From an uncultured Beijerinckia sp. (lineage in GTDB: Bacteria > Pseudomonadota > Alphaproteobacteria > Rhizobiales > Beijerinckiaceae): a DNA stretch of 64,000 nucleotides. The notes beneath the pieces are model-generated. The model made no database searches and was not told where the DNA came from. It saw only the letters and a list, made by a program, of their open reading frames with translations. The stretch covers positions 7,667 to 71,666 of the forward strand of contig CAZLBA010000004.1 in NCBI GenBank assembly GCA_964557555.1. Reading direction: 5' to 3'. Positions 24,760 to 54,033 of this stretch are shown here, in pieces. Both the position numbers and the translations under genes were made by a program. The stretch's first letter is position 1; every line of letters starts with the position of its first letter.

Positions 24760-26712
24760 CTAGGCGATGGCCTTGTCGGCTGCCTTGCGACGCAACACAA
24801 GGAACAGGGCAACCGCAAGCAGACCGCCCGCGGCCTGCCCCATCGCATTGGGCCAGAGCATGAGCCCCAGCGCCCCGATGAGGATCACCTGCTCAATCAC
24901 GCCGAGCCGCTGACGGATCACATGACCGTGCAAGATCAGCGCTGCCGCAAAGACCAGCGCAAAGCCTACCAGCGTATGCCAGATGATCTCGGCCCAGCCG
25001 CCCTGCAACATGATCCCAGGGTTGAACAAAAAGAAGAAGGGCAGCAGAAAACCACCCACGGCCAGCTTACAGGCGTAGACGCTGAGCTTGCCAGGATTAG
25101 CCCCAGCAATGGCGGCTGCAGCGAAATTGGCAACAGCCACGGGCGGCGTTATGGCCGAGAGACAAGCATAAAAGAGCAGGAACATATGCACGGGGATGAC
25201 CGGCAACTGAAACTTTCCAATGAGCACCGGCGCCAGCAGTGCAACGCCCATGATGTAAACACCTGTGGTGGGCATCCCCAACCCCAAAAGGATGAGGATA
25301 ATTCCTGCAAGGATGAGTGTTGTGATCAGATAGCCGCCCGAAAGCTGAAACATCAGCAGCGTGAATTTACCGGACAGCCCGGTCAGCTCGATGCAACCAA
25401 TCACCAGACCAGCAGCGGCAACAGAGCTTGCAAGCGGAACAGAACTCAAGCAGGTATCAACACAGGCCGCGACGAATTTCCTTGGGCCGATGCGCTTGCT
25501 TGCATCAGCAAACCAGCTTGCGATAATCACAGATACAACAGAACCTGCGGCGACATAGGCAGCTGAATAGCCCTGCACCAAAAGCCAAATGAGAACGATA
25601 ATTGGCAAAACGCTTGACCAGTTGCGTTGAAGAGCGACCTTCAAGCCGACAATCTGCGACTCTTCCAAAGGCGCCAGATTGCGTCGCTCTGCCTCAAAAT
25701 GCACAAAGCAATAAATGCCAAAATAATAGCCCAGCGCTGGCAGCGTCGCATAAAGGCAAACCAGCGCATAGGACACACCCGTAAAATCCGCCATCATGAA
25801 GGCCACCGCGCCCATGACCGGCGGCAACATGGAGCCGCCCGTTGATGAAGCAGCTTCAATTGCAGCAGCGCGCTCCGCTGGAATGCCAATCTTCTTCATG
25901 ATCGGAATACTGACCGGCCCTGTCGTTGCAACATCTGCAACCGGACTACCGGAGATGGAGCCATAAAGGCCGCTTGATAAAACGCAGGCTTTTGCGGGCC
26001 CGCCTGCCATACGCCCCGTCAAAGCCGCGCCTAAATCGAAGAAGAGCTGTCCACCGCCGCTAATGACGTAAAAATTGCCAAAAAGCACGAAGAGAAAAGC
26101 ATAGCTCGCCGCGACATAAAGCGGTGAGCCGAAGATGCCATCCGTTCCGATCAGCTGCATTTCAATGAAATAGTCGTAGGTGATTCCGGGGTGTCGGAAA
26201 GGTCCCGTCAACATGTGCCCGAAAGCGGAATAGGCCAGCAGCACAAAAATAACGCTGGTTAGTCCCCAGCCAACCGTACGCCGACAGACTTCAATCGTCG
26301 CCAGAATGAGGATTGTGCCGGCTATCGCATCTGCGCGCTCAACTTCCGAAAAGCCGGACATCCATTCAGCATAACGCGCACCATTCAAGGCCATATAGAT
26401 GGCCGCTCCGCAACTCACCGCACCGAGCAACCAGTCCCAGATGGTCAAATATTCAATGCGGCCATGCAAGGTCGTGGTGAGGAAACACACCGGCAGCAAC
26501 AGAACGAGAAAGACCGCAATCTGAAAATGCTGCGGCGCATGTGCAAAAAGAGCGAAATAGGAGATGATCAAAGTGGCAATGACAGACAGAACTGCCACGA
26601 AAACCCCGATACCCCCCTCTGGCCTTATCCGTCGTGTCTCATCAATTGATTCGATGATCCACGTCACAAGACCAGCAGGGGACTTGCGGGTGAGCTGCAA
26701 TTGATCCGTCAT
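24760..26712 (-). CDS. TAXI-TRAP fused 4TM/12TM permease
   Basis: GGPAKACV, GSISGS, AIEAASSTGG...PPVMGAVAF, GMPTT, ITPPVA. Confidence 0.93.
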   Translation of the reverse strand: MTDQLQLTRKSPAGLVTWIIESIDETRRIRPEGGIGVFVAVLSVIATLIISYFALFAHAPQHFQIAVFLVLLLPVCFLTTTLHGRIEYLTIWDWLLGAVSCGAAIYMALNGARYAEWMSGFSEVERADAIAGTILILATIEVCRRTVGWGLTSVIFVLLAYSAFGHMLTGPFRHPGITYDYFIEMQLIGTDGIFGSPLYVAASYAFLFVLFGNFYVISGGGQLFFDLGAALTGRMAGGPAKACVLSSGLYGSISGSPVADVATTGPVSIPIMKKIGIPAERAAAIEAASSTGGSMLPPVMGAVAFMMADFTGVSYALVCLYATLPALGYYFGIYCFVHFEAERRNLAPLEESQIVGLKVALQRNWSSVLPIIVLIWLLVQGYSAAYVAAGSVVSVIIASWFADASKRIGPRKFVAACVDTCLSSVPLASSVAAAGLVIGCIELTGLSGKFTLLMFQLSGGYLITTLILAGIILILLGLGMPTTGVYIMGVALLAPVLIGKFQLPVIPVHMFLLFYACLSAITPPVAVANFAAAAIAGANPGKLSVYACKLAVGGFLLPFFFLFNPGIMLQGGWAEIIWHTLVGFALVFAAALILHGHVIRQRLGVIEQVILIGALGLMLWPNAMGQAAGGLLAVALFLVLRRKAADKAIA

Positions 26713-26727
26713 GCGCCGCTGCCCTGT

Positions 26728-27768
26728 TTACTTCACGAGCCCGGCTTCTTTGTAATAGCGCAAGGCACCGGGATGCGTGCTGATCTGCGTTGTATTGCGC
26801 GCAGCCTCGGCGGGGGTGAAGGATGCGAGCGAGGGATGGATGGCCCGCACACGGTCCCGATTTTCCATCAGCGCCTTGGTGAATTTATAGACGGTCTCTT
26901 CGGAAACATGGTCACCCGCAACAATGGCATTCCAGATCACCACCGTCGTCTCATCCTTGGTCACGAAAGGATAGGCCCCGGCCGGCACCTTGATGGTGCG
27001 CAAGCCCCATTTGGCCGCCTCTGCAGCAAGCTTGTCGGCATCTGCTGAAATCCACTGCAAGGCGCGTCCCCGCGCAAGGTCGGTCACTTCAGCTGTCGGC
27101 AGAAACCCGCCATTGATGAAGACATCGACCTTGCCGTCGCGCAATGCATCAAACCCCGTCGCAGAATTACCGCGGATCATATTGCGACCATTATCCGTGA
27201 CTTCGCCCTCCCTGATACCAAAGGCATTGAACATGGTCTGATACATGGTCACCGTCGATTGCAAATTGGCTGCCAGATTGACGGTCAGACGCATGGGCGG
27301 CTTTTTGGCGGCAATGTCAGCGAAAGACGCGACGCCGTTTTTATCGGCCCATTCCTTCGTCATCAGATTATGCACGACCAGCCCTTCATGCAGCATCATG
27401 ACGAAATGAAACTTGCCTTTCAGCGGCTCCTTGAAAGGAGCCCGTCCTTCATTCGCATAGGCGATTTCAACAGGCGACGCGTTGAAAGCGAAATCTGATT
27501 TGCCGGTACCGATATTCAAAATGCCGCCAGCCGGAGAGCCGGGCTTATAGGTCGCATCAGTGCCCGGATAGGCTTCTCGAACAATGCCATTCAACGATTC
27601 GGTCACGACTTTGAAATAGCCTGTCGCAGTGGCACCATCGACCGAGAAGCTGATGGGGTTTTTGTTGTTGAAGGCCGGCCCCGCGCCGGAAGATGAGGCA
27701 GATTGCTGGGCTTTGGCAGGCAGCGCGAAAACCAGAACAAGTGGAAGAAATGCAGCAGTCAGGCGCAT
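26728..27768 (-). CDS. TAXI family TRAP substrate-binding protein
   Basis: Signal peptide, C-terminal HPGALRYYKEAG; adjacent to the fused permease. Confidence 0.9.
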   Translation of the reverse strand: MRLTAAFLPLVLVFALPAKAQQSASSSGAGPAFNNKNPISFSVDGATATGYFKVVTESLNGIVREAYPGTDATYKPGSPAGGILNIGTGKSDFAFNASPVEIAYANEGRAPFKEPLKGKFHFVMMLHEGLVVHNLMTKEWADKNGVASFADIAAKKPPMRLTVNLAANLQSTVTMYQTMFNAFGIREGEVTDNGRNMIRGNSATGFDALRDGKVDVFINGGFLPTAEVTDLARGRALQWISADADKLAAEAAKWGLRTIKVPAGAYPFVTKDETTVVIWNAIVAGDHVSEETVYKFTKALMENRDRVRAIHPSLASFTPAEAARNTTQISTHPGALRYYKEAGLVK

Positions 27769-27894
27769 GGCCGTCCCTCCCAAATTGTTTGACGCGCCCA
27801 TCCTGCCACCCTCATTTGCGCTGGTCAAAGCTTGGTTTTGGCCTTGAATCCCTTGCGCCCAGACCTAGCTGAACGGTGTGGAGGCCGCTGCCTG

Positions 27895-29436
27895 ATGCAT
27901 CTCATCCGTTTGCTCTCAATCTTGATCCTGCTTGGTTACAGCCTTTTTCTGGCAATTTTCGCCAAAACCGGCTTTCCACAAGGGCTCAATACAGGCGCTG
28001 CACTACCATTCGTCACCGATCAGCCTGTTGGTGAAGATGGTTATTACATGATGCTGGCGGCCTGGAATCTGGCCGAGGGACGCGGTCTCACTGCCAATTT
28101 TAACGCAATCGTGACCGGCATTCAGCCTCTCATGACGCTGGTGCTCGCAGGCCTTGCAAAGCTGGTACAAATCGCGGGCGGAGACAAGTTCGCCCTCGCA
28201 CGCGCCATGATCCTGTTTGGCGGGGTTAATCTTGCTGTCTTTGCCCTCACCATCAGCCATATTCTGCGCCTCACCATCAAGGATCGCGCACAGGCCGAAC
28301 TGGCGGCTACCCTCGGCGTCATTGCAACCTGCCTCAGCTTCTACCTCTTCCGCACCTTCACTTATGGACTGGAAACGGGACTATATCTGACACTCGTGGC
28401 CATGCTCATCGCCGCTTTGCTGCGCCAGTCAGAGATGAAATATTTCACTTGGGGCCGTGCCCTTTCGTTGGGCCTGCTTGTGGGCTTGTGCGGATTAGCG
28501 CGCATAGATTTTGGCATTCTGGCAGCGGTGGCCTTTGGCATTCTGTTCATCACGCGCCGCCTGCCCTTCACCACCTGCCTTGTTTCAGGTCTCATCGCCC
28601 TTGCTGTGACGGCCCCATGGTTCTTGTGGGTGAAGTCGGTCAGCGGCACCTATATGCCAACCTCCGGCCCTGCACAGGCAGAGATGATCAATGCAGGCAG
28701 CGCGCCGGGACGGATGGAAGCCATGCTGGCCGCAGTCGCCCAGAATATGACGCCATGGTGGCCGCTGGGTGGCTCCGCCGGCCTCGGCCTCATCGCGCTT
28801 GCTCTTCTTGCTCTTATTCTGGGGATGGCAAAAAGAGCGGGCCAAAATGCTCAACCATTCATCTTGTGGAGCTTTGTGGCCGCCTTTGCCTTGCTGCCGG
28901 TCATTTACGTTGTCTTCTTCTGGGCGGGACATTTCTATGCTCGCTACACCGCTTTGATTGTCATACCAGCCCTCATCTTCTGCTGCGCTTCTGCCTCTCA
29001 CCTTGTCTCGCAACGAAGCGGACCAGCGGCTGCGATGTTTTTGGCGATTGCCCTGCTGATCAATGGCGAAGCCATGATCAGCGCGCATCACAAGGGCGGT
29101 ATCAGTGATGGCCATGCGGTCGCTGCAGGCTATGTTGCGCGCGAATTGCCACGGGAGGCACGGGTCGGCGCATTCCAGAGCGGTGTCGTTGGCTTCTACA
29201 ATGAGAATGTGATCAATCTCGATGGCAAGGTCAATCAACCTGCCTTGCTTGCCTTGCGTGACAAGCGCATCGAAGACTATCTCGATGCAGAGAAGATCGA
29301 CTATGTCATAGACTGGGCGGGCGTCATTGAAGGTTTGATGCCACGCGCCTATCCAAACGGAGATTGGGTGAAATGCCCAAAGCCGGTCAATAATCTCGAA
29401 ACAATCTGCGTCATGCGGCGAGGAGCGAAACCGTGA
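27895..29436 (+). CDS. GT-C polytopic glycosyltransferase, AftB-like arabinofuranosyltransferase candidate
   Basis: EDGYY...WNLAEGRG loop after the first TM, GLETGL, ARIDF, C-terminal GVVGFY...VINLDGKVN; about 12 TM segments; operon context. Confidence 0.7.
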   Translation: MHLIRLLSILILLGYSLFLAIFAKTGFPQGLNTGAALPFVTDQPVGEDGYYMMLAAWNLAEGRGLTANFNAIVTGIQPLMTLVLAGLAKLVQIAGGDKFALARAMILFGGVNLAVFALTISHILRLTIKDRAQAELAATLGVIATCLSFYLFRTFTYGLETGLYLTLVAMLIAALLRQSEMKYFTWGRALSLGLLVGLCGLARIDFGILAAVAFGILFITRRLPFTTCLVSGLIALAVTAPWFLWVKSVSGTYMPTSGPAQAEMINAGSAPGRMEAMLAAVAQNMTPWWPLGGSAGLGLIALALLALILGMAKRAGQNAQPFILWSFVAAFALLPVIYVVFFWAGHFYARYTALIVIPALIFCCASASHLVSQRSGPAAAMFLAIALLINGEAMISAHHKGGISDGHAVAAGYVARELPREARVGAFQSGVVGFYNENVINLDGKVNQPALLALRDKRIEDYLDAEKIDYVIDWAGVIEGLMPRAYPNGDWVKCPKPVNNLETICVMRRGAKP

Positions 29437-30317
29437 AATCGCATCTGCCGCCTTGGTTGCTGGTTCTGCGTCCCCATCAATGGCTGAAGAATCTTCTCGT
29501 CTTTGTGCCGCTCGTCGCCTCGCATCGCTTCGAGGCAGACATCATCGTCCATTCACTTCTGGCCTTCATCGCCTTCAGTATCACCGCATCGGCCGTTTAT
29601 GTTGTGAATGATGTGAAGGATGTCGAAGCTGACAGAGCCCATCCGCGCAAACGCTTTCGTCCATTCGCCAGTGGCGCCCTGCCAGTGTCTCGCGCACCAC
29701 TGCTTCTCGCCGCCTTGCTGGTGCCGGGTTTTGCGATAGCCATTTGGACCGGTCCCCTATTTGCCGGCAGCCTCATCCTCTATCTCGCGATCAGCGGGGC
29801 TTACTCCTATCGGCTGAAGGGAGAGCCCATTCTTGACGTGTGTATTCTGGCCGGCCTCTATACGTGGCGCATCGTGGCTGGAGGATTGGCAACAGGCATC
29901 ACCCTGTCCGTGTGGCTTTTGGCATTCTCGATCTTCTTCTTCCTGGCACTGGCGGCAGTGAAGCGGCAGGCGGAATTGGTGGATCGACTCAAATGTGGCG
30001 AGGAACTGGCTCCCGGCCGCGGCTATCATGTCAGCGATCTGCCGATCATTGCAGGAATGGCCATGGCTGCAGGCTATGTGTCCGTGCTGGTGATGGCACT
30101 TTATGTCAACTCGCCCCATATTGCCGATCTCTACAAACATCCGGCCGCTCTTTGGGGCGTGTGCCTTGTCTTGCTCTACTGGATCAGCCATGTGGTACTG
30201 ACCGCGCATCGCGGGCTGATGCATGATGATCCGCTGGTCTTTGCCTTGCGCGATGGCATTAGCCGTTTTTGCGTTTTGTTAATGGCCGCTTTCCTCGCAG
30301 GGGGAACTTTTCTTTGA
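29433..30317 (+). CDS. UbiA family polyprenyl-phosphate 5-phosphoribosyltransferase (DPPR synthase/NoeC-like)
   Basis: LRPHQWLKN, VNDVKDVEADRAHPRKRFRPFASG, KRQAEL, MHDDP. Confidence 0.9.
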   Translation: MKSHLPPWLLVLRPHQWLKNLLVFVPLVASHRFEADIIVHSLLAFIAFSITASAVYVVNDVKDVEADRAHPRKRFRPFASGALPVSRAPLLLAALLVPGFAIAIWTGPLFAGSLILYLAISGAYSYRLKGEPILDVCILAGLYTWRIVAGGLATGITLSVWLLAFSIFFFLALAAVKRQAELVDRLKCGEELAPGRGYHVSDLPIIAGMAMAAGYVSVLVMALYVNSPHIADLYKHPAALWGVCLVLLYWISHVVLTAHRGLMHDDPLVFALRDGISRFCVLLMAAFLAGGTFL

Positions 30318-30730
30318 GCACTAGCCAGCTCATCTTTCGTTATGCAGCCTTTGCGGTGATAGCGACCCTGGCCAATCTCGGTGCGCAGCGTTTGGTGCTG
30401 GCATGGGACAGCACCGCCACGGGCTATGCCATCGCGGTGATCTGCGGCACAGGCATCGGCCTCGTGGTCAAATTCCTGCTCGATCGCCGCTGGATCTTTT
30501 TCGAAAAGAACCATGAACTCGCGCAGCAGAGCCGCCAATTCACGCTTTATGCCAGCACCGGAATCCTCACCACGCTCCTGTTCTGGACAAGTGAAACGCT
30601 CTTCTGGTGGATTGGCGGCAGTGATGCTGCCCGCGAGCTGGGCGCCATCATCGGTCTCGCCATCGGCTACGTGGTGAAGTATCGTCTCGACCGTCGATTT
30701 GTTTTCACCGATCAGGCGAGGCCCTCATGA
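30314..30730 (+). CDS. GtrA family membrane protein
   Basis: Four-TM protein with duplicated KFLLDRRWIF/KYRLDRRFVF motifs; TTG start overlapping the upstream stop. Confidence 0.85.
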   Translation: MSTSQLIFRYAAFAVIATLANLGAQRLVLAWDSTATGYAIAVICGTGIGLVVKFLLDRRWIFFEKNHELAQQSRQFTLYASTGILTTLLFWTSETLFWWIGGSDAARELGAIIGLAIGYVVKYRLDRRFVFTDQARPS

Positions 30731-32040
30731 AGCTCGCTGGATGGGGGCTTTACCCCACGGCCGAGTGTCGCTTGCTGCAGCCGCGCGATGTTGCGCAGAT
30801 CCGCGCCGCGCTGGCGCAAGGCCCATTGATTGCGCGCGGCAATGGGCGCGCTTATGGCGACAGTGCTCTCAACACAGACCAGACCGTTGATATGCGCGCT
30901 TTTCAGCGTATGCTGTCTTTCGATGATGTGAGTGGTCAGCTCGTTGCAGAGGCCGGCACATTGCTCAGCGACATTATTGAGGTCTTTTTGCCACGTGGAT
31001 GGTTTCCTGCTGTGACGCCGGGCACCCGTTACGTCACACTGGGCGGCATGGTGGCAGCCGACATACACGGCAAGAACCATCATGGCTTTGGTGGTATGCG
31101 CGCCTGCCTCGACTGGATTGATCTTTTATGCGCAGATGGAGAGATCAGGCGCTGCAGCCAGCAAGAAAATGTCGCCTTGTTTGACTGGACCTGTGGCGGC
31201 ATGGGACTAACCGGGATTATCTTGCGTGTTGCTTTGCGCTTGCAGCGCGTCGAAAGCGGATGGATCAACCAGACAAGTCATGTCGCGCGCAATCTTGATG
31301 AGGTAATGGCCCTCTTCGAGACATATGACAGCGCAACTTATTCCGTCGCATGGATTGATTGCCTGGCAAGTGGAGAAGCTCTTGGCCGCTCAATCCTGAT
31401 GCTGGGCGAACATGCAAAGCGTCAAGATTTGCCGCAGGGCAACGATGTGTTTCCGCGCGCACGCAAAGCGCTTTCTGTCCCTTTGGCTCCACCTGCAATC
31501 ATGCTCAATCGCTGGACCATGCGCGGCTTCAATGAGCTTTACTATCAGCTCGGATCACGCAAGGCTGGCCGGTCCCTCGCAAATTGGGAAGATTACTTCT
31601 ATCCGCTTGATAAATTACTGCATTGGAACAGGCTCTATGGTCGCAATGGCTTTGTGCAGTTTCAATGCGTGCTGCCACATGCAACAGCCAAAGCCGGCCT
31701 GAAGGCTCTTTTGCAGAAAACAGCAGAACGGGGACTTGGATCCTTTCTGGCTGTGTTGAAAAAAATGGGAAAGGATACAGGTGCTTTCTCTTTCCCCATG
31801 GAGGGCTATACTTTAGCGCTGGATTTCCCTGTCTCTCCGGAAGTTCTGACACTTCTCGAGTCGCTTGATGAAATTGTCATCGAATATGGCGGGCGTTTTT
31901 ATCTTGCCAAAGATGCGCGTATGACTGCAGATCGTTTGATCCGCGCCGATCAGCGCGCAGGTTTTTTTAAATCCATGCGGTCAACCGAAGGGCTGGCCCC
32001 TCATTTTCAATCGCTTCAATCTACGAGGTTGCAACTGTGA
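30727..32040 (+). CDS. dprE1: Polyprenylphosphoryl-beta-D-ribose 2'-oxidase-like FAD oxidoreductase
   Basis: IARGNGRAYGD, VTPGT, DIHGKNHH, GGMGLTG, YSVAWID, FYPLD, YLAKD. Confidence 0.88.
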   Translation: MKLAGWGLYPTAECRLLQPRDVAQIRAALAQGPLIARGNGRAYGDSALNTDQTVDMRAFQRMLSFDDVSGQLVAEAGTLLSDIIEVFLPRGWFPAVTPGTRYVTLGGMVAADIHGKNHHGFGGMRACLDWIDLLCADGEIRRCSQQENVALFDWTCGGMGLTGIILRVALRLQRVESGWINQTSHVARNLDEVMALFETYDSATYSVAWIDCLASGEALGRSILMLGEHAKRQDLPQGNDVFPRARKALSVPLAPPAIMLNRWTMRGFNELYYQLGSRKAGRSLANWEDYFYPLDKLLHWNRLYGRNGFVQFQCVLPHATAKAGLKALLQKTAERGLGSFLAVLKKMGKDTGAFSFPMEGYTLALDFPVSPEVLTLLESLDEIVIEYGGRFYLAKDARMTADRLIRADQRAGFFKSMRSTEGLAPHFQSLQSTRLQL

Positions 32041-32774
32041 CATCAGCACCCGTTCTCATTCTTGGCGGTTACTCGGATATCGGCCTCGCCATCGCTCATC
32101 GTTTCGCGGCACAGGGGCATCCCATCCAGCTGGCTGCGCGGCAAATCCACCGCCTTGCGGATGATGCGCGCGACATCCAAACACGCCATCGCGTGACAGT
32201 TGAGCTAATCGAATTCGACATTCTGGCAAGTGACCGGTTTGAGACCTTCATCACCTCGCTTCCGGCCGCGCCAGAAACAGTTGTCTGTGTCGTTGGTCTC
32301 CTTGGCAAGCAAGAAGAGAGCGAACAGGATTGGCGCGCGGCTGAGCAGGTTTTGCGCAGCAATTTTGAAGGGCCTGCCCTGATACTGGGACTGTTCGCCA
32401 ACCGCTTCGAGACAGCAGGAAGAGGCACAATCATCGGTGTCAGTTCCGTAGCAGGCGACCGCGGACGCGCGACCAATTATGTTTATGGATCCGCCAAGGC
32501 CGGTTTCACGGCTTTCCTCTCAGGCCTGCGCAACCGGCTCGCCAAAAAGGGCGTGAAGGTGGTGACTGTGCTGCCCGGCTTTGTTGCCACCCGCATGACT
32601 GCGGAGATGAAACTACCAAGGGCTCTGACGACATCACCGCAACATGTGGCCGAAGCCGTTGCACAGGCCGTGCAGAAGAACCGCGACGTGATCTATGTTG
32701 CCCCCATATGGCGCCTGATCATGTTCGTCATCCGCCATTTGCCCGAAACGATCTTCAAGCGGTTGCGCATCTGA
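32037..32774 (+). CDS. dprE2: DprE2-like short-chain reductase
   Basis: ILGGYSDIG, SSVAGDRGRATNYVYGSAKAG; directly follows dprE1. Confidence 0.85.
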   Translation: MTSAPVLILGGYSDIGLAIAHRFAAQGHPIQLAARQIHRLADDARDIQTRHRVTVELIEFDILASDRFETFITSLPAAPETVVCVVGLLGKQEESEQDWRAAEQVLRSNFEGPALILGLFANRFETAGRGTIIGVSSVAGDRGRATNYVYGSAKAGFTAFLSGLRNRLAKKGVKVVTVLPGFVATRMTAEMKLPRALTTSPQHVAEAVAQAVQKNRDVIYVAPIWRLIMFVIRHLPETIFKRLRI

Positions 32775-32844
32775 TTTTTCCTGCCGGTTTGACCGCTACC
32801 GTTTGGGGTGACAGGATGGCGGAAAATAATCGGGAGGAGACGAA

Positions 32845-33813
32845 ATGCGCTTGCTTGCAGCATTATGCTTTATGGCGGCTGCCTTGGGCGGACAAGCAGC
32901 CCAAGCTCAGGATTCAGCCTGGCCTAACCAACCCGTACGCGTCATCGTACCTTTTCCAGCAGGCGGCCCAGCCGATATCATTGCACGCTTCGTAAGCGAG
33001 CGACTGGCACAAACATTCGGCCAATCTTTCATCATCGAAAACAGGCCGGGCGCCAATACAGCCATTGCCGCTGCACAAGTCGCCAAAGCGCCCGCCAATG
33101 GCTACACGCTTCTTGTGGTGATGGATGTCACCATGGTGCTCAATCCGCTAACGGTGAAAAATCTCTCCTATGACCCGGTACGCGATTTTGCCCCCATCAG
33201 CCTGCTGGCCAAGAATGCAACCCTGCTGACAGTACATGCAGACGGGCCAAAGTCCGTGGCGGAACTCGTAGCCAAGGCAAAGGCAACGCCATCGAAGCTC
33301 AATTTTGGCGCAGGCATTTTGACCACTCGTCTGGCCGGTGAACTCTTTGCGCGCGAAAGTGGCTTCTCCGTCCAATATGTGCCTTTCCAGGGCAGCCCAC
33401 CCACCGTGCAAGCCCTGCTGTCAAAGTCGGTGGATTTCATCATTGACGGGCAGGCATCAAGCTTACCACTGATACAGGCTGGCACATTCCGTGCGCTTGC
33501 CAAATCAAACCGTGCCCCCGTTCCGCCACTGCCCCATCTCAAAAGCCTTGCTGAAGAAACGGGATCGGCCGCGCTTGAAGACATCTCGACATGGATTGGC
33601 CTTGTAGCCCCCACTGGCACGCCGCAACCCATCATCGACAAATTGCAAGCGCAGATCGCCCGGATTTATGCTGAACCGGGAATGAGTGCGCGCCTGCTTG
33701 ATATCGGGATCACACCTGCAGCGAATAAACCAGCCGAGTTCATCGACTTCATGCGCAATGAATCACAACGCTGGAGCAAGGTCATCCGTGACAGTGGCAT
33801 CGAGCTGAATTGA
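32845..33813 (+). CDS. Bug/TctC substrate-binding protein
   Basis: WPNQPVRVIVPFPAGGPAD, IENRPGA. Confidence 0.93.
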   Translation: MRLLAALCFMAAALGGQAAQAQDSAWPNQPVRVIVPFPAGGPADIIARFVSERLAQTFGQSFIIENRPGANTAIAAAQVAKAPANGYTLLVVMDVTMVLNPLTVKNLSYDPVRDFAPISLLAKNATLLTVHADGPKSVAELVAKAKATPSKLNFGAGILTTRLAGELFARESGFSVQYVPFQGSPPTVQALLSKSVDFIIDGQASSLPLIQAGTFRALAKSNRAPVPPLPHLKSLAEETGSAALEDISTWIGLVAPTGTPQPIIDKLQAQIARIYAEPGMSARLLDIGITPAANKPAEFIDFMRNESQRWSKVIRDSGIELN

Positions 33814-33828
33814 GAAGAGGCGGCTCTG

Positions 33829-33855
33829 AGGGCGATGGCAAAACCATCGCCCTTT
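33829..33855. terminator. Terminator hairpin between convergent genes
   Basis: AGGGCGATGG-CAAAA-CCATCGCCCT followed by TT. Confidence 0.7.
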
Positions 33856-33865
33856 CGCGCAGCCC

Positions 33866-35221
33866 CTATCGCAGGCCTCTGCGCGTAGACAGATCAGGCG
33901 GCCGCCGCAATCCAAGATTTTCGCGCAGCGTCTTGCCTTCATAGTCTGTATGAAACAAGCCTCGACGCTGTAGCTCCGGGATAAGCTTATTGACGACATC
34001 CTTGTAGGAAGTCGGCACATCGCTCGGCAAAATGTTGAAACCATCCGCCCCACGCTCAAGGAACCACGACTCCAGCTCATCGGCAATTTGTTTGACAGAG
34101 CCAATCAACGTCCAATGATGCTTGGCTGCGGCAGAGCGCATGGCCACCTGACGCAGTGTCAGGCCCTCGCGACGAGCCAGCGTGATATAGCTTTCAACAG
34201 CACTTACGCGCGCATTATTGACCGGAATGTCGGGCAAAGGTGCATCAAGATCATACTGTGATAGATCGACCCCACCCAGATTGGCAGACAAGCGCTGCAT
34301 AGCAACCCGCAGTGGAATCAAACTATTCATCATATCGAATTTTTCTTTGGCCTCCGTTTCGGTGTCAGCCATGAAAAGCAAGGCACCCGGCATGATGAGA
34401 ATGTCATCCGGCGTCCGACCGAACTGACCACAGCGGCCCTTTACGTTGTTGTAAAAGGTTTGGGCGTTTTGCAGGTTCGATTGTGAGGTGAAAATGACAT
34501 CAGCAACACGCGCGGAGATATTCATTCCGGGCTCGGACGATCCGGCCTGAATAAGCACCGGATGACCCTGGGGTGAGCGAGGCACGGCCGATGGACCGCG
34601 AACTTTGAAATATTTGCCTGAATGATTGAGCAAATGAACCCCATCGGGGCGCATGTAAACACCGCTTTTCTTGTCGCGCGGAAACGCATCATCGTCATAG
34701 CTATCCCAGATGCCGCGCACCACATCGACAAACTCTTCAGCTCGCTCATATCGCTCGGCATGAGGGACATGCTGTTCACGATTGAACTGAAGAGCATCAT
34801 CCTTGTTACTGCCCGTTACAATGTTCCATGCTGCGCGCCCTCCAGAGACATGATCGAGCGAGGCAACGGTACGAGCTAAATTATATGGCTCCAGATAAGT
34901 CGTGGTCATGGTTGAGGCGAGCCCGACATGCTTCGTCATCATCGACACAGCCGACAAGATCGGAATGGGATCCATGCGGTCAATGCGTGATGTCAGGCTT
35001 TGCGTTTCGAAATCATCCGTACCGGGCGGACTTGCAGCATCAGCAATGAAGAGCATATGCATCTTGCCACGCTCAATCGTCTGTGCCGCCTCAATCCAAC
35101 GCTGGATATTCTGGCCACCATCACATGTTGAGCCAGGCAGGCGCCAACCAGCCATGTGGTAATTGCCGTCACCCGTCAAAAAGAGCGACAGCTTCATCTG
35201 ACGTTTCATTGTCTCTGCCAT
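33866..35221 (-). CDS. LLM-class flavin monooxygenase, NtaA/DszA/SnaA family
   Basis: LFIAD, SLDHVSGGRAAWNIVT, PQGHPVLIQAGSS, PELQRRGLF...TLRENLG. Confidence 0.92.
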   Translation of the reverse strand: MAETMKRQMKLSLFLTGDGNYHMAGWRLPGSTCDGGQNIQRWIEAAQTIERGKMHMLFIADAASPPGTDDFETQSLTSRIDRMDPIPILSAVSMMTKHVGLASTMTTTYLEPYNLARTVASLDHVSGGRAAWNIVTGSNKDDALQFNREQHVPHAERYERAEEFVDVVRGIWDSYDDDAFPRDKKSGVYMRPDGVHLLNHSGKYFKVRGPSAVPRSPQGHPVLIQAGSSEPGMNISARVADVIFTSQSNLQNAQTFYNNVKGRCGQFGRTPDDILIMPGALLFMADTETEAKEKFDMMNSLIPLRVAMQRLSANLGGVDLSQYDLDAPLPDIPVNNARVSAVESYITLARREGLTLRQVAMRSAAAKHHWTLIGSVKQIADELESWFLERGADGFNILPSDVPTSYKDVVNKLIPELQRRGLFHTDYEGKTLRENLGLRRPPDLSTRRGLR

Positions 35222-44882: not shown

Positions 44883-46166
44883 TCAACCGAAAATGTCCTT
44901 CGTGATGCCAGCATACCAACCCATATTTTCAGCCTGCTGGTCCTTGCGTTGTGCCGGCGTCTCATTGGTCTGCGACACAAAGGTCTCAACCGCACCGATC
45001 TTTCCATCCTTGGCCGCATAAGAGCCGCCAACCTTGACGGTGTCATCGGGAGCGAGCAGCGACCAGCATGTGTTGGAATAGCGCGCCGGGAACACACGGG
45101 ACTGTGTCAGCTCCCCACGCACATTCATTGCAGCAACCTTTGCCTGGCTGTTGGCCGCAAAGGCAGACTTCGGCATGTCGCCTGCAATGCAAGCATCCCC
45201 CACAACATAGATGGACTTGTCATTGGCAGACTGCATCGTCTCAGGATTGATGGGGCAGAAACCTGAACCATCAACCAGCTGCGCATCACGCGCAATCTTG
45301 GAGGCCATCTGGGCAGGAATGACATTTACCAAGGCAGCATTCTTGTAGGTTTCGAAACCGGTGACGACCGTATTTGTCTTTGGATCGACCGATTTCACGC
45401 CTTCATGGATCTTCGGCCCCAGCCATTCAACCATGCCGGGATAATGACGATCCCAAGCCTGCTGGAAGAGTGCCTGTTTGGAGAAGGACTCCTTGGGGTC
45501 GATGATGATGATCTTCGACTTGGTCTTGCCTGCTGTCTTGAGCACATGAGCCATCATCGAGACGCGCTCATAAGGGCCGGGCGGACAGCGATAGGGATTA
45601 GGCGGCGCAATCATCACAATGGTGCCGCCATTGGGAACAGCTGCAAGGCGCTTCTTGAGAATGTCAGTCTGCGGACCTGCCTTCCATGCATGCGGCATGG
45701 ATTGTTCAAACTGCTGGCCCCAGCCCGGAACTGAATCATATTTCAAGTCAATGCCGGGCGAAATCACCAACCGGTCATATGAAAGCCGCGTACCATCATT
45801 CAGCACGACCTGCTTCTTGTCACGGTCGATCAGCTTTGCCATCTGGCGTGCATGTTTGAGCTTGTATTGCGCCACCAGCGTGTCATAGCGATGCGTGATC
45901 GACTGCATATCGCGGAAGCCACCCAAATAGAGATTCGAGTGGAAGCAGGTCACGAATTGGGAGGCCGGCTCCACCAGCGTGACCGCAAGCTGCCCCTCGC
46001 TATCCTTGGCGATGTATTTTGCAGCCGTTGCACCGCCCGGCCCGCCACCAATCACAATCACATTGGCTTTCGCACGACCAAGTACTGCAGGCGCACCAAG
46101 CACCATGCTGGCGCCAAAGGTTGAGGCGCCAAGCAGAACACTGCGACGATCGAATTGAGACATCAT
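44883..46166 (-). CDS. soxF: Flavocytochrome c sulfide dehydrogenase flavoprotein
   Basis: Tat signal RRSVL, GGGPGG, YRCPPGPYER, MPKSAF, NTCWSL. Confidence 0.92.
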   Translation of the reverse strand: MMSQFDRRSVLLGASTFGASMVLGAPAVLGRAKANVIVIGGGPGGATAAKYIAKDSEGQLAVTLVEPASQFVTCFHSNLYLGGFRDMQSITHRYDTLVAQYKLKHARQMAKLIDRDKKQVVLNDGTRLSYDRLVISPGIDLKYDSVPGWGQQFEQSMPHAWKAGPQTDILKKRLAAVPNGGTIVMIAPPNPYRCPPGPYERVSMMAHVLKTAGKTKSKIIIIDPKESFSKQALFQQAWDRHYPGMVEWLGPKIHEGVKSVDPKTNTVVTGFETYKNAALVNVIPAQMASKIARDAQLVDGSGFCPINPETMQSANDKSIYVVGDACIAGDMPKSAFAANSQAKVAAMNVRGELTQSRVFPARYSNTCWSLLAPDDTVKVGGSYAAKDGKIGAVETFVSQTNETPAQRKDQQAENMGWYAGITKDIFG

Positions 46167-46223
46167 TTCCTCCCGTTCTTTTCACAAGATTACTGGCAAG
46201 CGTAACCGTGACGCAAGCAGCAT

Positions 46224-46547
46224 CTACTTTTGAGACGCATTTTTTAACTTACCGAAATAGGCTGCCAGAGCTGCCATGTCATCGGCAGAAAGCCTGCCTG
46301 CAATAGTCTGCATCGTGACATTGTCCCGATGCTTGTCCTTGTAGGACTGGAGCACGGCAACGAACTGATCCTCAGGCCAACCGGTAATCGCGGGGACACC
46401 CGCGATGACTTGACCTGACTTTTGGTGGCAGGTGACGCATTCGCTGGAAAGATATTCTCCCAACGCCGCATCACCTCGCCCGGCCTGAGCATAGGCTTGG
46501 GACGCAAGAGCGACCAGCGGGATCGACAAGAGCAAGTGCAGGCGCAT
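46224..46547 (-). CDS. Small monoheme cytochrome c (at the soxE position)
   Basis: Signal peptide, CVTCH, distal Met; 1-nt overlap with the soxD stop. Confidence 0.88.
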   Translation of the reverse strand: MRLHLLLSIPLVALASQAYAQAGRGDAALGEYLSSECVTCHQKSGQVIAGVPAITGWPEDQFVAVLQSYKDKHRDNVTMQTIAGRLSADDMAALAAYFGKLKNASQK

Positions 46548-47218
46548 TATTCCACACGCGGTGCTGTCTTGGAGTCAGGTGTCACGTCGAGGACGCGCGC
46601 ACGGTTCATGACTTTGGGCGTGCCTGCTATGCAATTGCTCATGCATGGCGTCTTTTTCCAGAAAGCCTTTTCACTTGTCTCACGATTGTCGTCGTAGAAA
46701 GCTTTGGCATTGGGCAAAGACACCGATTTGAAATTCTCATCCGAGAGAACGAAATCGTCATTGGCGAGATCGTTCAGATTGAGAAGAAAAGCCGTGATGG
46801 CATAGGTCTCATCGGCAGTGAGTGACTGAGCATTACCAAAAGGCATCGTGCGCCGAACATAGTCGAACACGGTGGACAGATAAGGCCAGAAAGAGCCGAT
46901 GGTCTTTTCAGGATTGTCCTTGCTGAGTGAGCCGCGCCCGCCCGCCAGCACGGGATAGCGGCCAGCACCTTCGCCAAACTCGCCATGGCACATGGCGCAG
47001 CGTTCAAGATAGAGTTCCTCTCCCTGCTTCACACTTCCTTTGCCTTTGGGAAGGCCGGCGCCATCGGGGCGGACATCTATGTCCCATGCGGCAATTTCCT
47101 CAGGCAAGGCAATCCGTCCAAGCCCGGTCTTTTTCGCAGGCGCCTGCGTCTGCGCCAGCGCAGGCACAGCAAAACAGATGGCAAGGACAATGAGAGCTGC
47201 ATTACGAAATTTCGACAT
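46547..47218 (-). CDS. soxD: Sulfane dehydrogenase cytochrome c subunit (monoheme)
   Basis: AWDIDVRPDGAGLP, CAMCHG, KTIGSFWPY, MPFG. Confidence 0.92.
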   Translation of the reverse strand: MSKFRNAALIVLAICFAVPALAQTQAPAKKTGLGRIALPEEIAAWDIDVRPDGAGLPKGKGSVKQGEELYLERCAMCHGEFGEGAGRYPVLAGGRGSLSKDNPEKTIGSFWPYLSTVFDYVRRTMPFGNAQSLTADETYAITAFLLNLNDLANDDFVLSDENFKSVSLPNAKAFYDDNRETSEKAFWKKTPCMSNCIAGTPKVMNRARVLDVTPDSKTAPRVE

Positions 47219-48473
47219 TTTCGACCTCCCCATTGCCATGCACCAGCCAGGTCTGGATGCCGTTATTGTGATAAATTGAATTGGTACCCCGCACCGCACG
47301 CAGCTCTTGCTTCGTTGGCTGGACATAACCCGTATTGTCCATTGCACGGGACTGAACCATCAGCTCTCGCCCATCCCATTCGAAGTCGAAATAGAAGCGC
47401 ACGATGGACATCGGCAATGATGGCCCCTCGATTCGAGCGGTCTTCCAGTTGCGTCCTCCATCAAGTGACACATCGACCCGCGTGACGGTACCACGCCCGG
47501 ACCATGCAATGCCGGAAAGCACATTGGCGCCTTTATGTTTCATTGGCGCCTGAGGCGATGGGCTGGTGACAACAGATTTCGCATCCATGATCCATGTGAA
47601 GCGACGCGATCTGCCATCAGCCAGAAGATCGGTATATTTCGATGTCTCTTCGCGCGCGTGCCAGGGCTGATCACCCACTTCAACGCGGCGCAGCCATTTC
47701 ACCCACATATTACCTTCCCAACCGGGAACGACGAGGCGCACGGGATAGCCTTGTTCAGGCCGCAGGGCTTCACCATTCATGCCGAAGGCGACGAGGCAAT
47801 CCTTCATCGCCTTTTCGATGGGAATGGAGCGCGTCATCAAAGATGCATCTGCGCCTTCCGGCATCACCCATTTGCCACTGGTCTTGACCCCAGCCTCATC
47901 CAGCAAAACCTTCAAAGGCACGCCGGTATACCAGACATTATGGATCATTCCGTGGGTGAACTGGCAGCCATTGAGCTGCGCGCCCCGCCATTCCATGCCT
48001 GAATTGGCAGCGCATTCGAGGAAATAGGCGCGGTTGACGCGGCCCGGCATCCGCTTGAGATCCTCCATCGTGAAGACAAGCGGACGATCCACAAGGCCAT
48101 TGATCATGATCCGATGCTTGGCGGGATCAATCTCGGCAATGCCGCCGTGATGACGCTCGAAAGCAAGACCTGATGGCGTGATCACGCCATCAAGTGCGTG
48201 AATGGGTGTAAAATTGACGGAGGATTCACGGCTGACCGTGAGCCATTCCACATCCTGACGCACGATGTGTTTTTCAAATTTCGACGGCGTCCCATAGGGC
48301 CGCGCCTGCACGCCATCTCCCAGAAAGCGGCTCCAATCCTGCACTTCCGTAATCAACGGATCAGGCTTGGTCTGCGCGCCCGCCTTGGAAGAAGCCACTG
48401 CAGCACCGGCGAGCCCTGCGCCGGCGAGGAAATGGCGGCGATCCATTGATCGCTTTGCATTTTGTTCGCTCAT
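47202..48473 (-). CDS. soxC: Sulfane dehydrogenase molybdoprotein
   Basis: Tat RRHFL, FERHH, FLECAAN, EQGYPVRLVVPGWEG, YHNN. Confidence 0.95.
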   Translation of the reverse strand: MSEQNAKRSMDRRHFLAGAGLAGAAVASSKAGAQTKPDPLITEVQDWSRFLGDGVQARPYGTPSKFEKHIVRQDVEWLTVSRESSVNFTPIHALDGVITPSGLAFERHHGGIAEIDPAKHRIMINGLVDRPLVFTMEDLKRMPGRVNRAYFLECAANSGMEWRGAQLNGCQFTHGMIHNVWYTGVPLKVLLDEAGVKTSGKWVMPEGADASLMTRSIPIEKAMKDCLVAFGMNGEALRPEQGYPVRLVVPGWEGNMWVKWLRRVEVGDQPWHAREETSKYTDLLADGRSRRFTWIMDAKSVVTSPSPQAPMKHKGANVLSGIAWSGRGTVTRVDVSLDGGRNWKTARIEGPSLPMSIVRFYFDFEWDGRELMVQSRAMDNTGYVQPTKQELRAVRGTNSIYHNNGIQTWLVHGNGEVENVEIS

Positions 48474-48503
48474 GCCATCCACCCTATTTTCAATCTGAAT
48501 TGG

Positions 48504-50201
48504 TTACGCGCCGACCAGTTTCACCGAGGTATTGGGGTCGAGTTTCACTGTCTTCACACGGGCCAGATATTTCTCGACAACATCCCAGATCGGCGGTCCT
48601 TCGGTCCCTTGATTGACGCTGGCCCAACCAGCCACGACATATCGACGATTGGCGTCGATGGGCTTGCCAGTCTTCAGCTCTGTCATGTCGGAAATCCGCT
48701 GATTGACGGGCTTGGATACATCAATCGTATAGCCAACACCCCCGACCCGGACCATGTCGCCGCCACCCTGGAAATATGGATCCGGGTGGAAGATATTGTC
48801 TGCGACATCTTCCAGAATGGCCTTCAGCTGTGAGCCTGCCATCTCCATGCGATAGCAGTTGGGATAGGTCATTGCGGTGGCATTCGCCAGAGCCTCGAAC
48901 GTGATCGCATCGCCGGGAACCAGCGTGCCACCCCAGCGGAAGCCCGGCGAAAGCGAAATTTCCGCATCGCGCTCTGACAACATCGCGGCACAAATCAGAT
49001 CATCAAAGGTGCCATTGAAGTTACCGCGCCGGTAAAGCAGCGTTTCGGTACGTGCGAGTTCTCGCGAAAGCTCTGCTGCAAAGGGTTCGCGAATTTTCTT
49101 CACGAGTGCAGCCATCTGCGCATCAGGCGTGATCGCGTCTGAGAATACGGGCATCAGTTTGTAACGGAAGCCAGCGATTTTTTTGTCTCTTACATCAAGG
49201 TCAAGGCGGGATACGAATTTGCCATGCGAGCCTGAGGCAATCAAAATTGTATGACCGACCTGCAATGCTCCCGGCATTGCATCATGCGTATGCGCCGTGA
49301 GGATAACATCGAGCCCCTTCACGCGACCTGCAAGCTTCCGGTCAACGTCAAAGCCATTATGCGAGAGCAGAATGACAACATCTGCACCCTCGGCCCGCGC
49401 TTCATCGACCTGCTTTTGCAGATCGTCTTCACGAATGCCAAATTCCCAGTCGGGGAACATCCAGCGGGGATTGGCAATGGCCGTACGCGGCAAGGCCTGA
49501 CCAATCACGGCCACTTTCGCGCCGCCGCGCTCGAACATTTTACGGGCCTCGAACACCGGCTCCTGCCACTCTGCAGAGCGGATGTTCTGCGCCAGAAAAG
49601 CGAAAGGTGCGGTGTCGGCAATTTCCTTCACGCGCTTGTCGCCCAGAGTGAATTCCCAATGCGACGTCATCGCATCAATTTTCAGCGCGGCCTGCACATC
49701 GACCATGTCCTGACCATTGGTCTTGAGCGAGGTCCAGCTGCCTTGCCATGTATCACCACCGTCCAGCAGCAACACATTCCCATCACCGCGATCGGCGCGT
49801 ATCGCATTGATCAGAGTTGCCACACGATCCATGCCACCCATGCGCCCATAATTTCGCGCCAGCGCCACAAAATCTTCGCTGGTCAGGGCATAGGCATCTG
49901 GCGACCCAGCAGCGATCTTGAACCAGTTGCGAAATTCCGCATCCGTGAGATGTGGCGGCTTGCCACGCGCTTCACCCACGCCAAGATTGATAGATGGCTC
50001 GCGGAAATAAAGCGGCATCAGCTGAGCATGGATATCCGTGACATGCAGGATCGTGAGACGGCCTAGCGGGTCGAAACGCATGATATCGGCCTGCGTCATG
50101 CGCTGCTGTGCAGCAACACGCCCCAGCGGCCCCAGACCTGAGCCAGACATCATCACAGATGCAGCGGCTGTCGCCTGCAGGAAATGCCTGCGCGATACCA
50201 T
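48504..50201 (-). CDS. soxB: Thiosulfohydrolase
   Basis: Tat RRHFL, TDIHAQL, DGGDTWQGS, HWEF, LSHNG, HTHD, QGGGDMVRVGG. Confidence 0.96.
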   Translation of the reverse strand: MVSRRHFLQATAAASVMMSGSGLGPLGRVAAQQRMTQADIMRFDPLGRLTILHVTDIHAQLMPLYFREPSINLGVGEARGKPPHLTDAEFRNWFKIAAGSPDAYALTSEDFVALARNYGRMGGMDRVATLINAIRADRGDGNVLLLDGGDTWQGSWTSLKTNGQDMVDVQAALKIDAMTSHWEFTLGDKRVKEIADTAPFAFLAQNIRSAEWQEPVFEARKMFERGGAKVAVIGQALPRTAIANPRWMFPDWEFGIREDDLQKQVDEARAEGADVVILLSHNGFDVDRKLAGRVKGLDVILTAHTHDAMPGALQVGHTILIASGSHGKFVSRLDLDVRDKKIAGFRYKLMPVFSDAITPDAQMAALVKKIREPFAAELSRELARTETLLYRRGNFNGTFDDLICAAMLSERDAEISLSPGFRWGGTLVPGDAITFEALANATAMTYPNCYRMEMAGSQLKAILEDVADNIFHPDPYFQGGGDMVRVGGVGYTIDVSKPVNQRISDMTELKTGKPIDANRRYVVAGWASVNQGTEGPPIWDVVEKYLARVKTVKLDPNTSVKLVGA

Positions 50202-50241
50202 GCTGACCTCCCGTTTCTTCTTGCCTTGCGGCACAACGCAA

Positions 50242-50568
50242 TCAGGCGACGTTCAGCTTGGAAGCTGCCGTATATTCGGAGCCGTTATCGTCCTTCCAGA
50301 CGAATTTGAACTCACCCGACTCGGCTGCCTTGTAAAAGAAGGACTGATAGGGATTGGCTGACACCGCCGTGTACCAATCCGCCTCAAACACAACCTTGCC
50401 GTTGAAGCTGGCTGTGAACTTGTTGATGATCCGGCGTGGAATGGTCTTGCCAGCGGAATCCTTGCGCTGGCCTGATTCCATCTCATGCGAAATCAGCGTC
50501 TTGATCTCGATGAGTTCGCCCTTCTTGGCATTTGCAGGAACACGAACACGCGGTGTGGGGTTCGACAT
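50242..50568 (-). CDS. soxZ: Sulfur carrier protein SoxZ
   Basis: KTLISHEMESGQRKD...IPR, VSANPY. Confidence 0.95.
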   Translation of the reverse strand: MSNPTPRVRVPANAKKGELIEIKTLISHEMESGQRKDSAGKTIPRRIINKFTASFNGKVVFEADWYTAVSANPYQSFFYKAAESGEFKFVWKDDNGSEYTAASKLNVA

Positions 50569-50603
50569 ATCTCAATCTCCTCGAAGCTGAATGAAAGGCA
50601 GAA

Positions 50604-51062: not shown

Positions 51063-51208
51063 GAAACTTCCTCCAGACAGCCAAAGTATGATGGGACCCC
51101 TCTTGACTTCGGGGCCCTCGATTTCAAACATAGTGATATCTATTTTTTTGAATGTAAAGCGCCATCATTAAGGGGACCCCTTACCAAAAGGGGGAAGAGG
51201 AGGACGCC

Positions 51209-52036: not shown

Positions 52037-52042
52037 GGAGAC

Positions 52043-52660: not shown

Positions 52661-52692
52661 AAAATCGGCGGGGGCGTTCAGCGTCCTCGCCA

Positions 52693-53247: not shown

Positions 53248-53253
53248 GATGAC

Positions 53254-53982: not shown

Positions 53983-54000
53983 GCCATCCTCCCGGAGCTG

Positions 54001-54030
54001 GCATTCGTATTCGAATATATCTATATTAGT
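54001..54030. promoter_or_regulatory. AT-rich soxV/soxS divergent promoter, candidate SoxR operator
   Basis: TATTCGAATA palindrome at 54008-54017; SoxR is known to bind the soxS-soxV intergenic region in Paracoccus. Confidence 0.45.
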
Positions 54031-54033
54031 TTT

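Follow-up and report, generated by a model that had tools for sequence, protein, structure and literature searches.

A five-gene operon with a predicted pentofuranose-donor pathway

We analyzed a 64,000-nucleotide stretch of DNA from an uncultured Beijerinckia sp. (hereafter the window; contig CAZLBA010000004.1, or C4, of the source assembly GCA_964557555.1, or G000). Between positions 27895 and 32774 of its + strand (~4.9 kb), the window carries an operon of five intact open reading frames (ORFs) encoding, from 5' to 3', a GT-C-fold transferase (GT-C), a UbiA-type enzyme, a GtrA-family protein, DprE1, and DprE2. As a preliminary description of this DNA had reported, all five frames are open across this span, and a 4-nt start/stop overlap is present at every junction (GTGA, TTGA, ATGA, and GTGA). 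The genes and the evidence on which each was assigned are as follows.

27895..29436, + strand: membrane glycosyltransferase with a GT-C fold, family unclassified, 513 aa (structure model, Foldseek, Z scores)
29433..30317, + strand: predicted UbiA-family polyprenyl-phosphate 5-phosphoribosyltransferase (PPPRS; NoeC/Rv3806c type), 294 aa (PF01040, PRK08238, PDB match)
30314..30730, + strand: membrane protein of the GtrA family, predicted to flip the donor or act as a scaffold, 138 aa (PF04138, NF037976)
30727..32040, + strand: DprE1-type FAD oxidase, predicted to oxidize C2 of polyprenyl-phospho-ribose, 437 aa (PDB matches, motifs)
32037..32774, + strand: DprE2-type short-chain dehydrogenase/reductase, predicted to reduce the product to the arabino configuration, 245 aa (PDB match, motifs)

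The best PDB match of the UbiA protein is Rv3806c (E 7e-35). In the alignment to this structure, 11 of 11 substrate- and Mg-binding residues are kept, with R22, K28, Y70, N73, D77, K87, R90, Y138, K143, Y157, and K191 of Rv3806c corresponding to R13, K19, Y56, N59, D63, K73, R76, Y124, K129, Y143, and K177 of the operon protein. These include the residues named for binding phosphoribosyl pyrophosphate (PRPP), Mg, and the 5'-phosphate, the last of which are missing from ordinary UbiA enzymes (PMC10994848, in part). The GtrA protein scored 47.5 bits against PF04138 (cut-off 26.1) and 157 bits against NF037976 (cut-off 50), so hidden Markov model (HMM) searches bear out the families that the preliminary description had given for these two genes. 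For DprE1, all nine PDB matches at E<=1e-10 were themselves DprE1 (best, 6e-68), and the protein carries the motifs IHGKNHH, FVQFQ, KKMG, and YLAKD, which we take to be active-site motifs with the residue roles presumed. On presumed residue numbering for the position of the mycobacterial target cysteine, residue 364 of the operon DprE1 (window 31816-31818) is alanine. Benzothiazinones attack that cysteine in mycobacteria (PMC7502851, in part), so these compounds are unlikely probes for the operon enzyme.

The fifth gene adjoins DprE1, and its product carries SSVAG and YGSAK motifs (Ser + YxxxK). Its best PDB match is DprE2 (E 5e-39; second-best match, 8e-16), and it scored 346 bits against PRK07102, above the cut-off of 267. 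DprE1 and DprE2 are a textbook pair, and the identical order of the four donor genes recurs in other genomes and on plasmids, which argues that the operon is not a chance arrangement. Of 72,556 plasmid records, 65 carry a DprE1 homologue, as do 19 of the 65 genomes of the same genus.

Based on these similarities, a mechanism can be proposed. The UbiA-type PPPRS would transfer phosphoribosyl from PRPP to polyprenyl phosphate, DprE1 would oxidize C2 of polyprenyl-phospho-ribose, and DprE2 would reduce the product to the arabino form, yielding undecaprenyl-phospho-D-arabinofuranose. GtrA might then act as a flippase or scaffold for the lipid-linked donor, and the GT-C protein would carry out the periplasmic transfer of arabinofuranose (Araf) to an envelope glycan, with lipopolysaccharide (LPS) favored. 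The gene roles of the mycobacterial donor pathway are described in PMC7502851 (in part).

Comparison with characterized systems places the operon closest to the noeC-noeN-noeH-noeO-noeP genes of Rhizobium sp. IRBG74, an alphaproteobacterial set that likewise consists of overlapping genes in the order UbiA-GtrA-DprE1-DprE2. Identities are 55% for UbiA/NoeC, 45% for GtrA, 54% for DprE1/NoeH, and 60% for DprE2/NoeO, and both sets have a single membrane transferase and no detectable HAD phosphatase. In IRBG74, however, the transferase NoeP, whose deletion abolishes D-arabinofuranosylation of Nod factor (PMC5080398, in part), is encoded last and is unrelated to GT-C, which is encoded first in the operon, and no nod genes are present in the window. 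Since the transferase is unrelated and nod genes are lacking nearby, the acceptor probably differs from that of IRBG74. NodA had no match in the 89%-complete source assembly, nor did it match any control genome.

In Pseudomonas aeruginosa, PA7_6246-6249 comprise PPPRS, GtrA, DprE1, and DprE2 in the same order and, together with a pilA-tfpW-tfpX cassette, glycosylate pilin in E. coli (bioRxiv 2020.04.19.049825, in part); this set resembles the operon by description rather than by sequence. In Pseudomonas, the transferase gene need not be linked to the donor genes, and the same is seen in six relatives here. Relative to PA7_6245-6249 plus TfpW, the operon lacks an adjacent phosphatase gene, an adjacent pilin gene, and a TPR domain. 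ORF15-ORF14-ORF12/GT136 of Citrobacter youngae O1/O2 is alike in combining PPPRS, a small flippase, and a GT-C component, but the operon has no fused HAD phosphatase, encodes GtrA instead of an ArnE-like flippase, and lies outside an O-antigen cluster; its GT-C also has no CBM, a domain often found at the C-terminus of GT136. The mycobacterial decaprenyl-phospho-arabinose pathway (Rv3806c, Rv3807c, Rv3789, DprE1, DprE2) provides the best solved-structure matches of three operon donor enzymes, while the operon host has a Gram-negative envelope, no arabinan, and no Rv3807c neighbor.

Kelly et al. 2024 (PMC11127046, in part) defined a widespread class of systems, which add a pentose to a polymerized glycan in the periplasm, by PPPRS, a small flippase, and a GT-C, with DprE1/DprE2 marking Araf. 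The loci that they list include some whose acceptor is unknown or whose GT-C is unannotated, one of them in Rhizobium. The operon encodes PPPRS, a small flippase, a GT-C, and DprE1/DprE2. The polyprenyl-phospho-arabinofuranose donor pathway proposed in the preliminary description holds as a prediction, based on the PDB matches, the key residues, and the identity to IRBG74. Calling it mycobacterial in style, with the rarity that this implied, was overstated, because its nearest characterized counterpart is the IRBG74 noe operon, DprE1 is common, and the class has been published as widespread. The donor module is common, and its affinities lie with rhizobia and pseudomonads; we do not regard it as a stray from mycobacteria.

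One step of the pathway has no candidate gene in the operon, since no 5'-phosphatase is encoded there; in the class of Kelly et al., this enzyme is either fused or separate. The UbiA protein matches PRK08238 only at model positions 191-478 and thus has no HAD domain, and a profile built from eight HAD-PPPRS fusions found nothing in the source assembly (best E 0.92). Elsewhere, this assembly contains two PAP2 genes above cut-off, on contigs C6 and C168, as well as HAD genes, and the PAP2 products may, we infer, serve as the pathway phosphatase. Of the close relatives, six (G001, G002, G008, G009, G022, and G074) retain a fused HAD domain in eroded form, and three (G045, G069, and G077) have none. 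Across the PPPRS genes at L021-L024, L026-L029, and L151, erosion is graded to absence across the genus and in both donor-operon subtypes, which suggests relaxed selection on the fused phosphatase. An absent phosphatase need not block the pathway, because no HAD domain is detectable in the 13-kb Rhizobium IRBG74 noe locus and a Pseudomonas phosphatase mutant still glycosylates its pili, albeit less heavily (bioRxiv 2020.04.19.049825, in part).

The IRBG74 plasmid gene that lies between noeC and noeH, and is therefore noeN by position (L218:5582-6004, NC_022536.1), belongs to the GtrA family. Its product was proposed as a phosphatase in PMC5080398 (in part). We dropped the idea of noeN as a dispensable phosphatase once the gene proved to be GtrA-family; the partial phenotype of the noeN mutant fits a flippase or scaffold, and our search found no publication that notes noeN as GtrA-family.

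The GT-C transferase and its association with donor genes

The first gene product had no match in Pfam or NCBIfam. Among 30 of its homologues, some matched PMT_2 or LA_3751 putative glycosyltransferase families, all below cut-off, and the ESM Atlas returned only unnamed or PMT-like clusters. The structure model (pLDDT 94.3, built with 107 homologues) has ~11 transmembrane helices and a C-terminal alpha/beta domain. In Foldseek, it gave 31 matches at E<=0.001 that were headed by GT-C enzymes and were GT-C throughout among the matches listed. The top structural match was ArnT (Z 21.1, rmsd 4.5, 437 residues aligned), and scores were also high for Pmt4 (Z 19.9) and AftB (Z 17.2, rmsd 4.2, 420 aligned). 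The predicted structure thus confirms the first gene as GT-C by fold, as the preliminary description had named it, even though sequence family models do not recognize it. ArnT, the lipid A aminoarabinose transferase, likewise uses a lipid-phosphate-linked pentose donor, but GT-C is only 10% identical to it and has no PMT_2 match, and the source genome has a separate ArnT/RgtD-like gene. This latter gene lies on contig C6 with PAP2, GT2, and LAB_N genes (L132:5872-9452). Other GT-C-like genes of the genome include a YfhO-like gene on C12 (L134:5859-8141), a GT2 gene with an unannotated 491-aa membrane protein on C26 (L135:7336-9770), and a PMT_2 gene on C117 (L139:7516-9006).

Eight GT-C residues (E47, D48, Q77, E160, R203, S257, R350, and Y351) are invariant in 107/107 homologues, and the acidic pair E47-D48 follows helix 1, a feature of the GT-C superfamily. 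The family is large. At E<=1e-30, it numbers 1,214 clusters (50%-identity representatives, out of 1.84 billion) from many diderm phyla, and members were found in 13 of 400 sampled Alphaproteobacteria. Cultured carriers of family members include Jannaschia CCS1 (JANN_RS21590) and Ruegeria SCSIO 43209 (I5192_RS22220). The closest homologues of the operon GT-C (52-58% identical) come from sources labeled Beijerinckiaceae or Hyphomicrobiales, in agreement with the alphaproteobacterial host suggested in the preliminary description. No phage-borne copy of GT-C was found in 50,697 phage records, among which PPPRS had a single match. Homology of GT-C to NoeP was rejected, as neither BLAST nor HMM searches gave a match and hhalign assigned a probability of 0.4%. 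The motifs compared by eye between GT-C and GT136 (GDG.EY, HF.Y, YWHEQ, and NGRY) have RY in common and otherwise differ.

AftB is a retaining beta-1,2-arabinofuranosyltransferase with donor-site residues D62, T91, E172, R221, T274, and R372 (PMC12041299, in part). Five of these (D62, E172, R221, T274, and R372) align directly with GT-C D48, E160, R203, S257, and R350, while T91 lies next to a gap, no more than two columns from Q77. The matched GT-C residues are kept in 107/107 homologues and, in a diverse set of 33 homologues, in 32-33. AftB also has the highest identity to GT-C among the structural matches listed (13-14%), and it was the only match when the GT-C profile was compared with PDB sequences, at a non-significant E of 2.7; with the broader profile A2, this match was lost rather than strengthened. 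The Z score of AftB is below those of ArnT, Pmt, ALG12, and OST entries, and several of the AftB-matched positions are presumably general GT-C sites. The sequence link is weak, and we regard the resemblance to AftB as a lead. It is a speculative and rather improbable extension that the family is a Gram-negative counterpart of AftB, a retaining enzyme that here would place beta-linked D-Araf directly onto lipid A-core in a freshwater lineage without O-antigen. Kelly et al. (PMC11127046, in part) found no beta-linked Araf side chain beyond the AftB precedent, and our literature search found no paper on this GT-C family or on an AftB-like Gram-negative enzyme, with the proviso that subscription papers and supplement figures may bear on it.

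If GT-C belongs with the donor genes, the two should occur together. Within the genus, GT-C is present in 10 of 65 genomes, nine of which have PPPRS and the close DprE1 subtype, while in the 55 genomes that lack GT-C, PPPRS is present in 14 and a distant DprE1 in 10. Conversely, GT-C is present in 9/9 same-genus genomes with the close DprE1 subtype. GT-C lies inside the operon in G000, G069, and G077 (the G069 and G077 operons lack GtrA). In the other seven, it lies elsewhere and follows an SbmA/BacA-like ABC gene on the same strand (L041-L047), a pairing confined to one clade that possibly reflects one event. Together with the missing 5'-phosphatase, the six relatives whose donor genes are unlinked from GT-C make the term self-contained, used in the preliminary description, too strong.

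Adjacency in other lineages lends separate support to this association. We examined the neighborhoods of 75 family loci (67 outside the genus and 8 same-genus). Four were flanked by three or four donor genes (one of them same-genus), and one more by UbiA alone; the donor-adjacent members are those of G069/G077 and of Desulfobacteraceae, Prochlorococcus, and Methylophilales records. Donor genes also adjoin 2 of 14 further alphaproteobacterial family loci (G395/G514) and three of five plasmid matches of GT-C (Jannaschia, Ruegeria, and Kovacikia), such that the family adjoins donor genes in at least seven lineages. In genome-wide searches for 50 of the 67 outside-genus loci (all but the 17 most distant), a PPPRS-like gene was present in 48/50 genomes; the base rate is high, however, as 71 of 121 genomes in a control sample from one phylum, the Acidobacteriota, also had a PPPRS-like gene (one of these matches being the unpublished G153). 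Taken together, these data indicate that the GT-C family tracks lipid-linked pentofuranose donors, and not always arabinose.

Three relatives show features of their own. Besides its GT-C gene, G008 has another family member, a distant one (26% identity; L050:8222-9718). In the 57%-complete assembly G022, DprE1 and DprE2 are each split over two frames (L026:8780-11276), through either sequencing error or decay. G045 encodes a HAD-less PPPRS that is 60% identical to that of the window and is paired with a 424-aa non-Pfam membrane protein (L149:8915-11165). DprE1 was not found in the G045 genome, and the pair is a candidate ribofuranose system.

Candidate acceptors and alternative explanations

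We propose, with a probability of roughly three in four, that the operon encodes a three-component pentofuranose system that likely makes undecaprenyl-phospho-D-arabinofuranose for periplasmic transfer to an envelope glycan, most likely LPS. Judged from sequence, the arabinofuranose decoration system is real and probably functional. Should it work, LPS (lipid A-core or a short chain) would be about an even bet as acceptor, exopolysaccharide or capsule would be clearly less likely, and a protein or, marginally behind it, another glycolipid would be improbable. We rank LPS first because searches of the incomplete source assembly turned up no genes for O-antigen or capsule export: Wzy_C/WaaL, the initiating transferase (Bac_transf), Wza, Wzx, and Wzm were not found there, the one Wzx-family match being MurJ. 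WaaA is present in all 10 GT-C genomes of the genus, and other genes resembling those for lipid A modification are present in the source genome. A literature search yielded nothing direct on an Araf acceptor in this bacterial group.

Several points weigh against this proposal. The DprE1 protein scored 384 bits against NF053785, under the equivalog cut-off of 500 (next family, 38 bits), and DprE2 scored 202 bits against NF053786, under the mycobacterial equivalog cut-off of 250. HMM support for these two genes of the preliminary description is therefore partial, in that the families are matched and PRK07102 is passed while both equivalog cut-offs are missed; DprE1 is DprE1-like by predicted function yet outside the curated equivalog. 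Co-occurrence within the genus also counts for less than its tally. In a tree of RpoB from 44 of the 65 genomes, seven of the ten GT-C genomes form one clade, so the tally amounts to two or three events, and we rejected our reading of it as nine independent events. (Of the remaining genomes, 20 had no RpoB match, G000 and G077 among them, and G057 was left out as a short fragment; G043 had two discordant copies.) Donor adjacency is low, at 4/75 and 2/14 family loci, and DprE1 is present in only 27/50 distant GT-C genomes, so that in the wider family, ribofuranose or another pentose is probably transferred as well. With respect to the acceptor, the choice of LPS rests on absences in an 89%-complete assembly without rpoB, and polysaccharide islands are often lost from such assemblies. 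Moreover, Wzy_C is present in 6/10 GT-C genomes, and distant GT-C relatives sit within exopolysaccharide clusters.

One alternative is that the same donor pathway serves a GT-C that decorates exopolysaccharide or capsule, whose cluster would lie elsewhere or be missing from the assembly. We regard this as a minority possibility, although the least improbable of the alternatives. Distant family members on Rhodovulum, Jannaschia, and Ruegeria plasmids occur in Wzx/Wzy-type and exosortase-associated polysaccharide clusters, and a Leloir glycosyltransferase, initiating transferase, or GDP-fucose synthase gene flanks 27 of 67 outside-genus loci compared with 39 of 461 windows of the source genome, a difference that is inflated because the profiles were built from the same loci. 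Genes that we assign to GDP-sugar and dTDP-rhamnose synthesis by reading their sequence also lie near contig ends in the source genome. Nevertheless, Wza, Wzx, Wzm, Wzy_C, and Bac_transf had no match in that genome, G069 has none of the four families searched there, G077 has only a Wza-like gene, and such neighbors occur at 0/8 same-genus family loci. It is unlikely that GT-C is instead a protein O-arabinosyltransferase similar to TfpW that targets Flp/Tad pilins or other surface proteins and masks phage receptors. Two Flp-like pilin ORFs are present on contig C29 of the source genome, the donor operon of G008 and that of G022 have Tad genes as neighbors, and PEP-CTERM genes flank one family member (L059). 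The proposed role in phage masking, which was raised in the preliminary description, has its precedent for pilins only, in that D-Araf on Pseudomonas pilins blocks phages (bioRxiv 150227, in part). TfpW is encoded directly behind the pilin gene and has a C-terminal TPR domain (bioRxiv 2020.04.19.049825, in part), whereas there is no pilin gene in the window, and GT-C, at 513 aa versus 646 for TfpW, has a C-terminal domain that is alpha/beta with no TPR family match. Furthermore, the Tad adjacency is seen in only 2/6 unlinked relatives and concerns the donor genes rather than GT-C. Read depth over the cassette was like that of its flanks in 4/4 environmental runs compared, unlike a strain-variable receptor island, bearing in mind that contigs drop rare variants and that the runs were found with this stretch.

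A comparably small probability attaches to the explanation that little arabinose is made, either because GT-C mainly moves ribofuranose (or either pentose) or because the pathway stalls at the 5'-phosphorylated lipid. The 23/50 distant GT-C genomes without DprE1, when 48/50 have a PPPRS-like gene, are consistent with this explanation, as are the promiscuity of the Citrobacter GT-C for pentoses (PMC11127046, in part) and the HAD domain that is eroded in relatives and absent from the operon PPPRS. On the other hand, both DprE1 and DprE2 are intact, and their genes are translationally coupled; 9/9 same-genus genomes with this DprE1 subtype carry GT-C, and arabinosylation by the IRBG74 operon proceeds although no HAD domain is detectable there. 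In addition, the free C5 hydroxyl is bound in AftB by a residue (PMC12041299, in part) that lines up with the invariant E160.

Pathways of this class were already known from rhizobia, Pseudomonas, and Citrobacter; the transferase alone belongs to an unclassified family. The operon mainly widens the host list of the pathway to a widespread freshwater Beijerinckiaceae-like species, and it allows an unannotated GT-C family to be linked to lipid-linked pentofuranose donors. Donor and transferase genes share a single 4.9-kb piece that could be transferred to a laboratory strain. Should the AftB-like site reflect retaining chemistry, the enzyme would provide a second model of how retaining GT-Cs catalyze transfer, along with a route to beta-arabinofuranosides of use in glycoengineering.

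Genomic setting and assembly

The operon is preceded by a gap that separates it from a divergent gene:

27769..27894, no strand: divergent gap of 126 bp between a TRAP/TAXI binding-protein gene and the operon; putative promoter region

The TRAP/TAXI gene lies on the minus strand with its likely start at 27768, and a GGAGG ribosome site is present at 27880-27884, ahead of the GT-C gene. We infer a promoter for the operon in this gap from position, because the scan for sigma-70-like sites (27500-34000) was at chance level, with 3 found versus 3.3 expected and none in the gap. The start of GtrA was set at TTG 30314 rather than at the upstream TTG 30269, since relatives align from residue 1 of the former.

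The source assembly comprises 3.36 Mb in 233 contigs, is 89% complete, and lacks rpoB. At least half of the window is contained in each of 17 sequencing runs, which come from nine studies and are mainly of freshwater or river origin. Contigs from independent runs span both operon borders (26654-30757 and 32046-33655), which, together with the flank-like depth, indicates that the assembly is sound at the operon. A recent foreign insertion was not supported, given that GC is level with the flanks and independent-run contigs bridge both borders. The 19 operon variants listed consist of 10 silent and 9 missense changes with no stop (251 further variants lie beyond these). Three RNA runs contain 0.06-0.10 of the words of the stretch, a share that we did not count as evidence on expression.

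The operon is surrounded by genes of TRAP/TctC transport and aromatic catabolism and by sox genes. Consistent with the statement in the preliminary description that no nod, pilin, or polysaccharide genes flank it, a scan of 55 of the 56 other called window genes found no nod, pilin, glycosyltransferase, or polysaccharide genes; four had no Pfam family. In the region 32775-33813 of the window, a TctC-family gene starts 70 bp past the operon on the same strand. No terminator-like site was found in the 70-bp gap, and this gene may share the operon transcript; it is not a conserved neighbor among relatives. The window is also rich in TctC genes, contains four UbiD-family genes, and carries a sox-type sulfur oxidation cluster at 44886-55942 that includes SoxY, SoxZ, SoxA, and sulfide dehydrogenase genes, among others.

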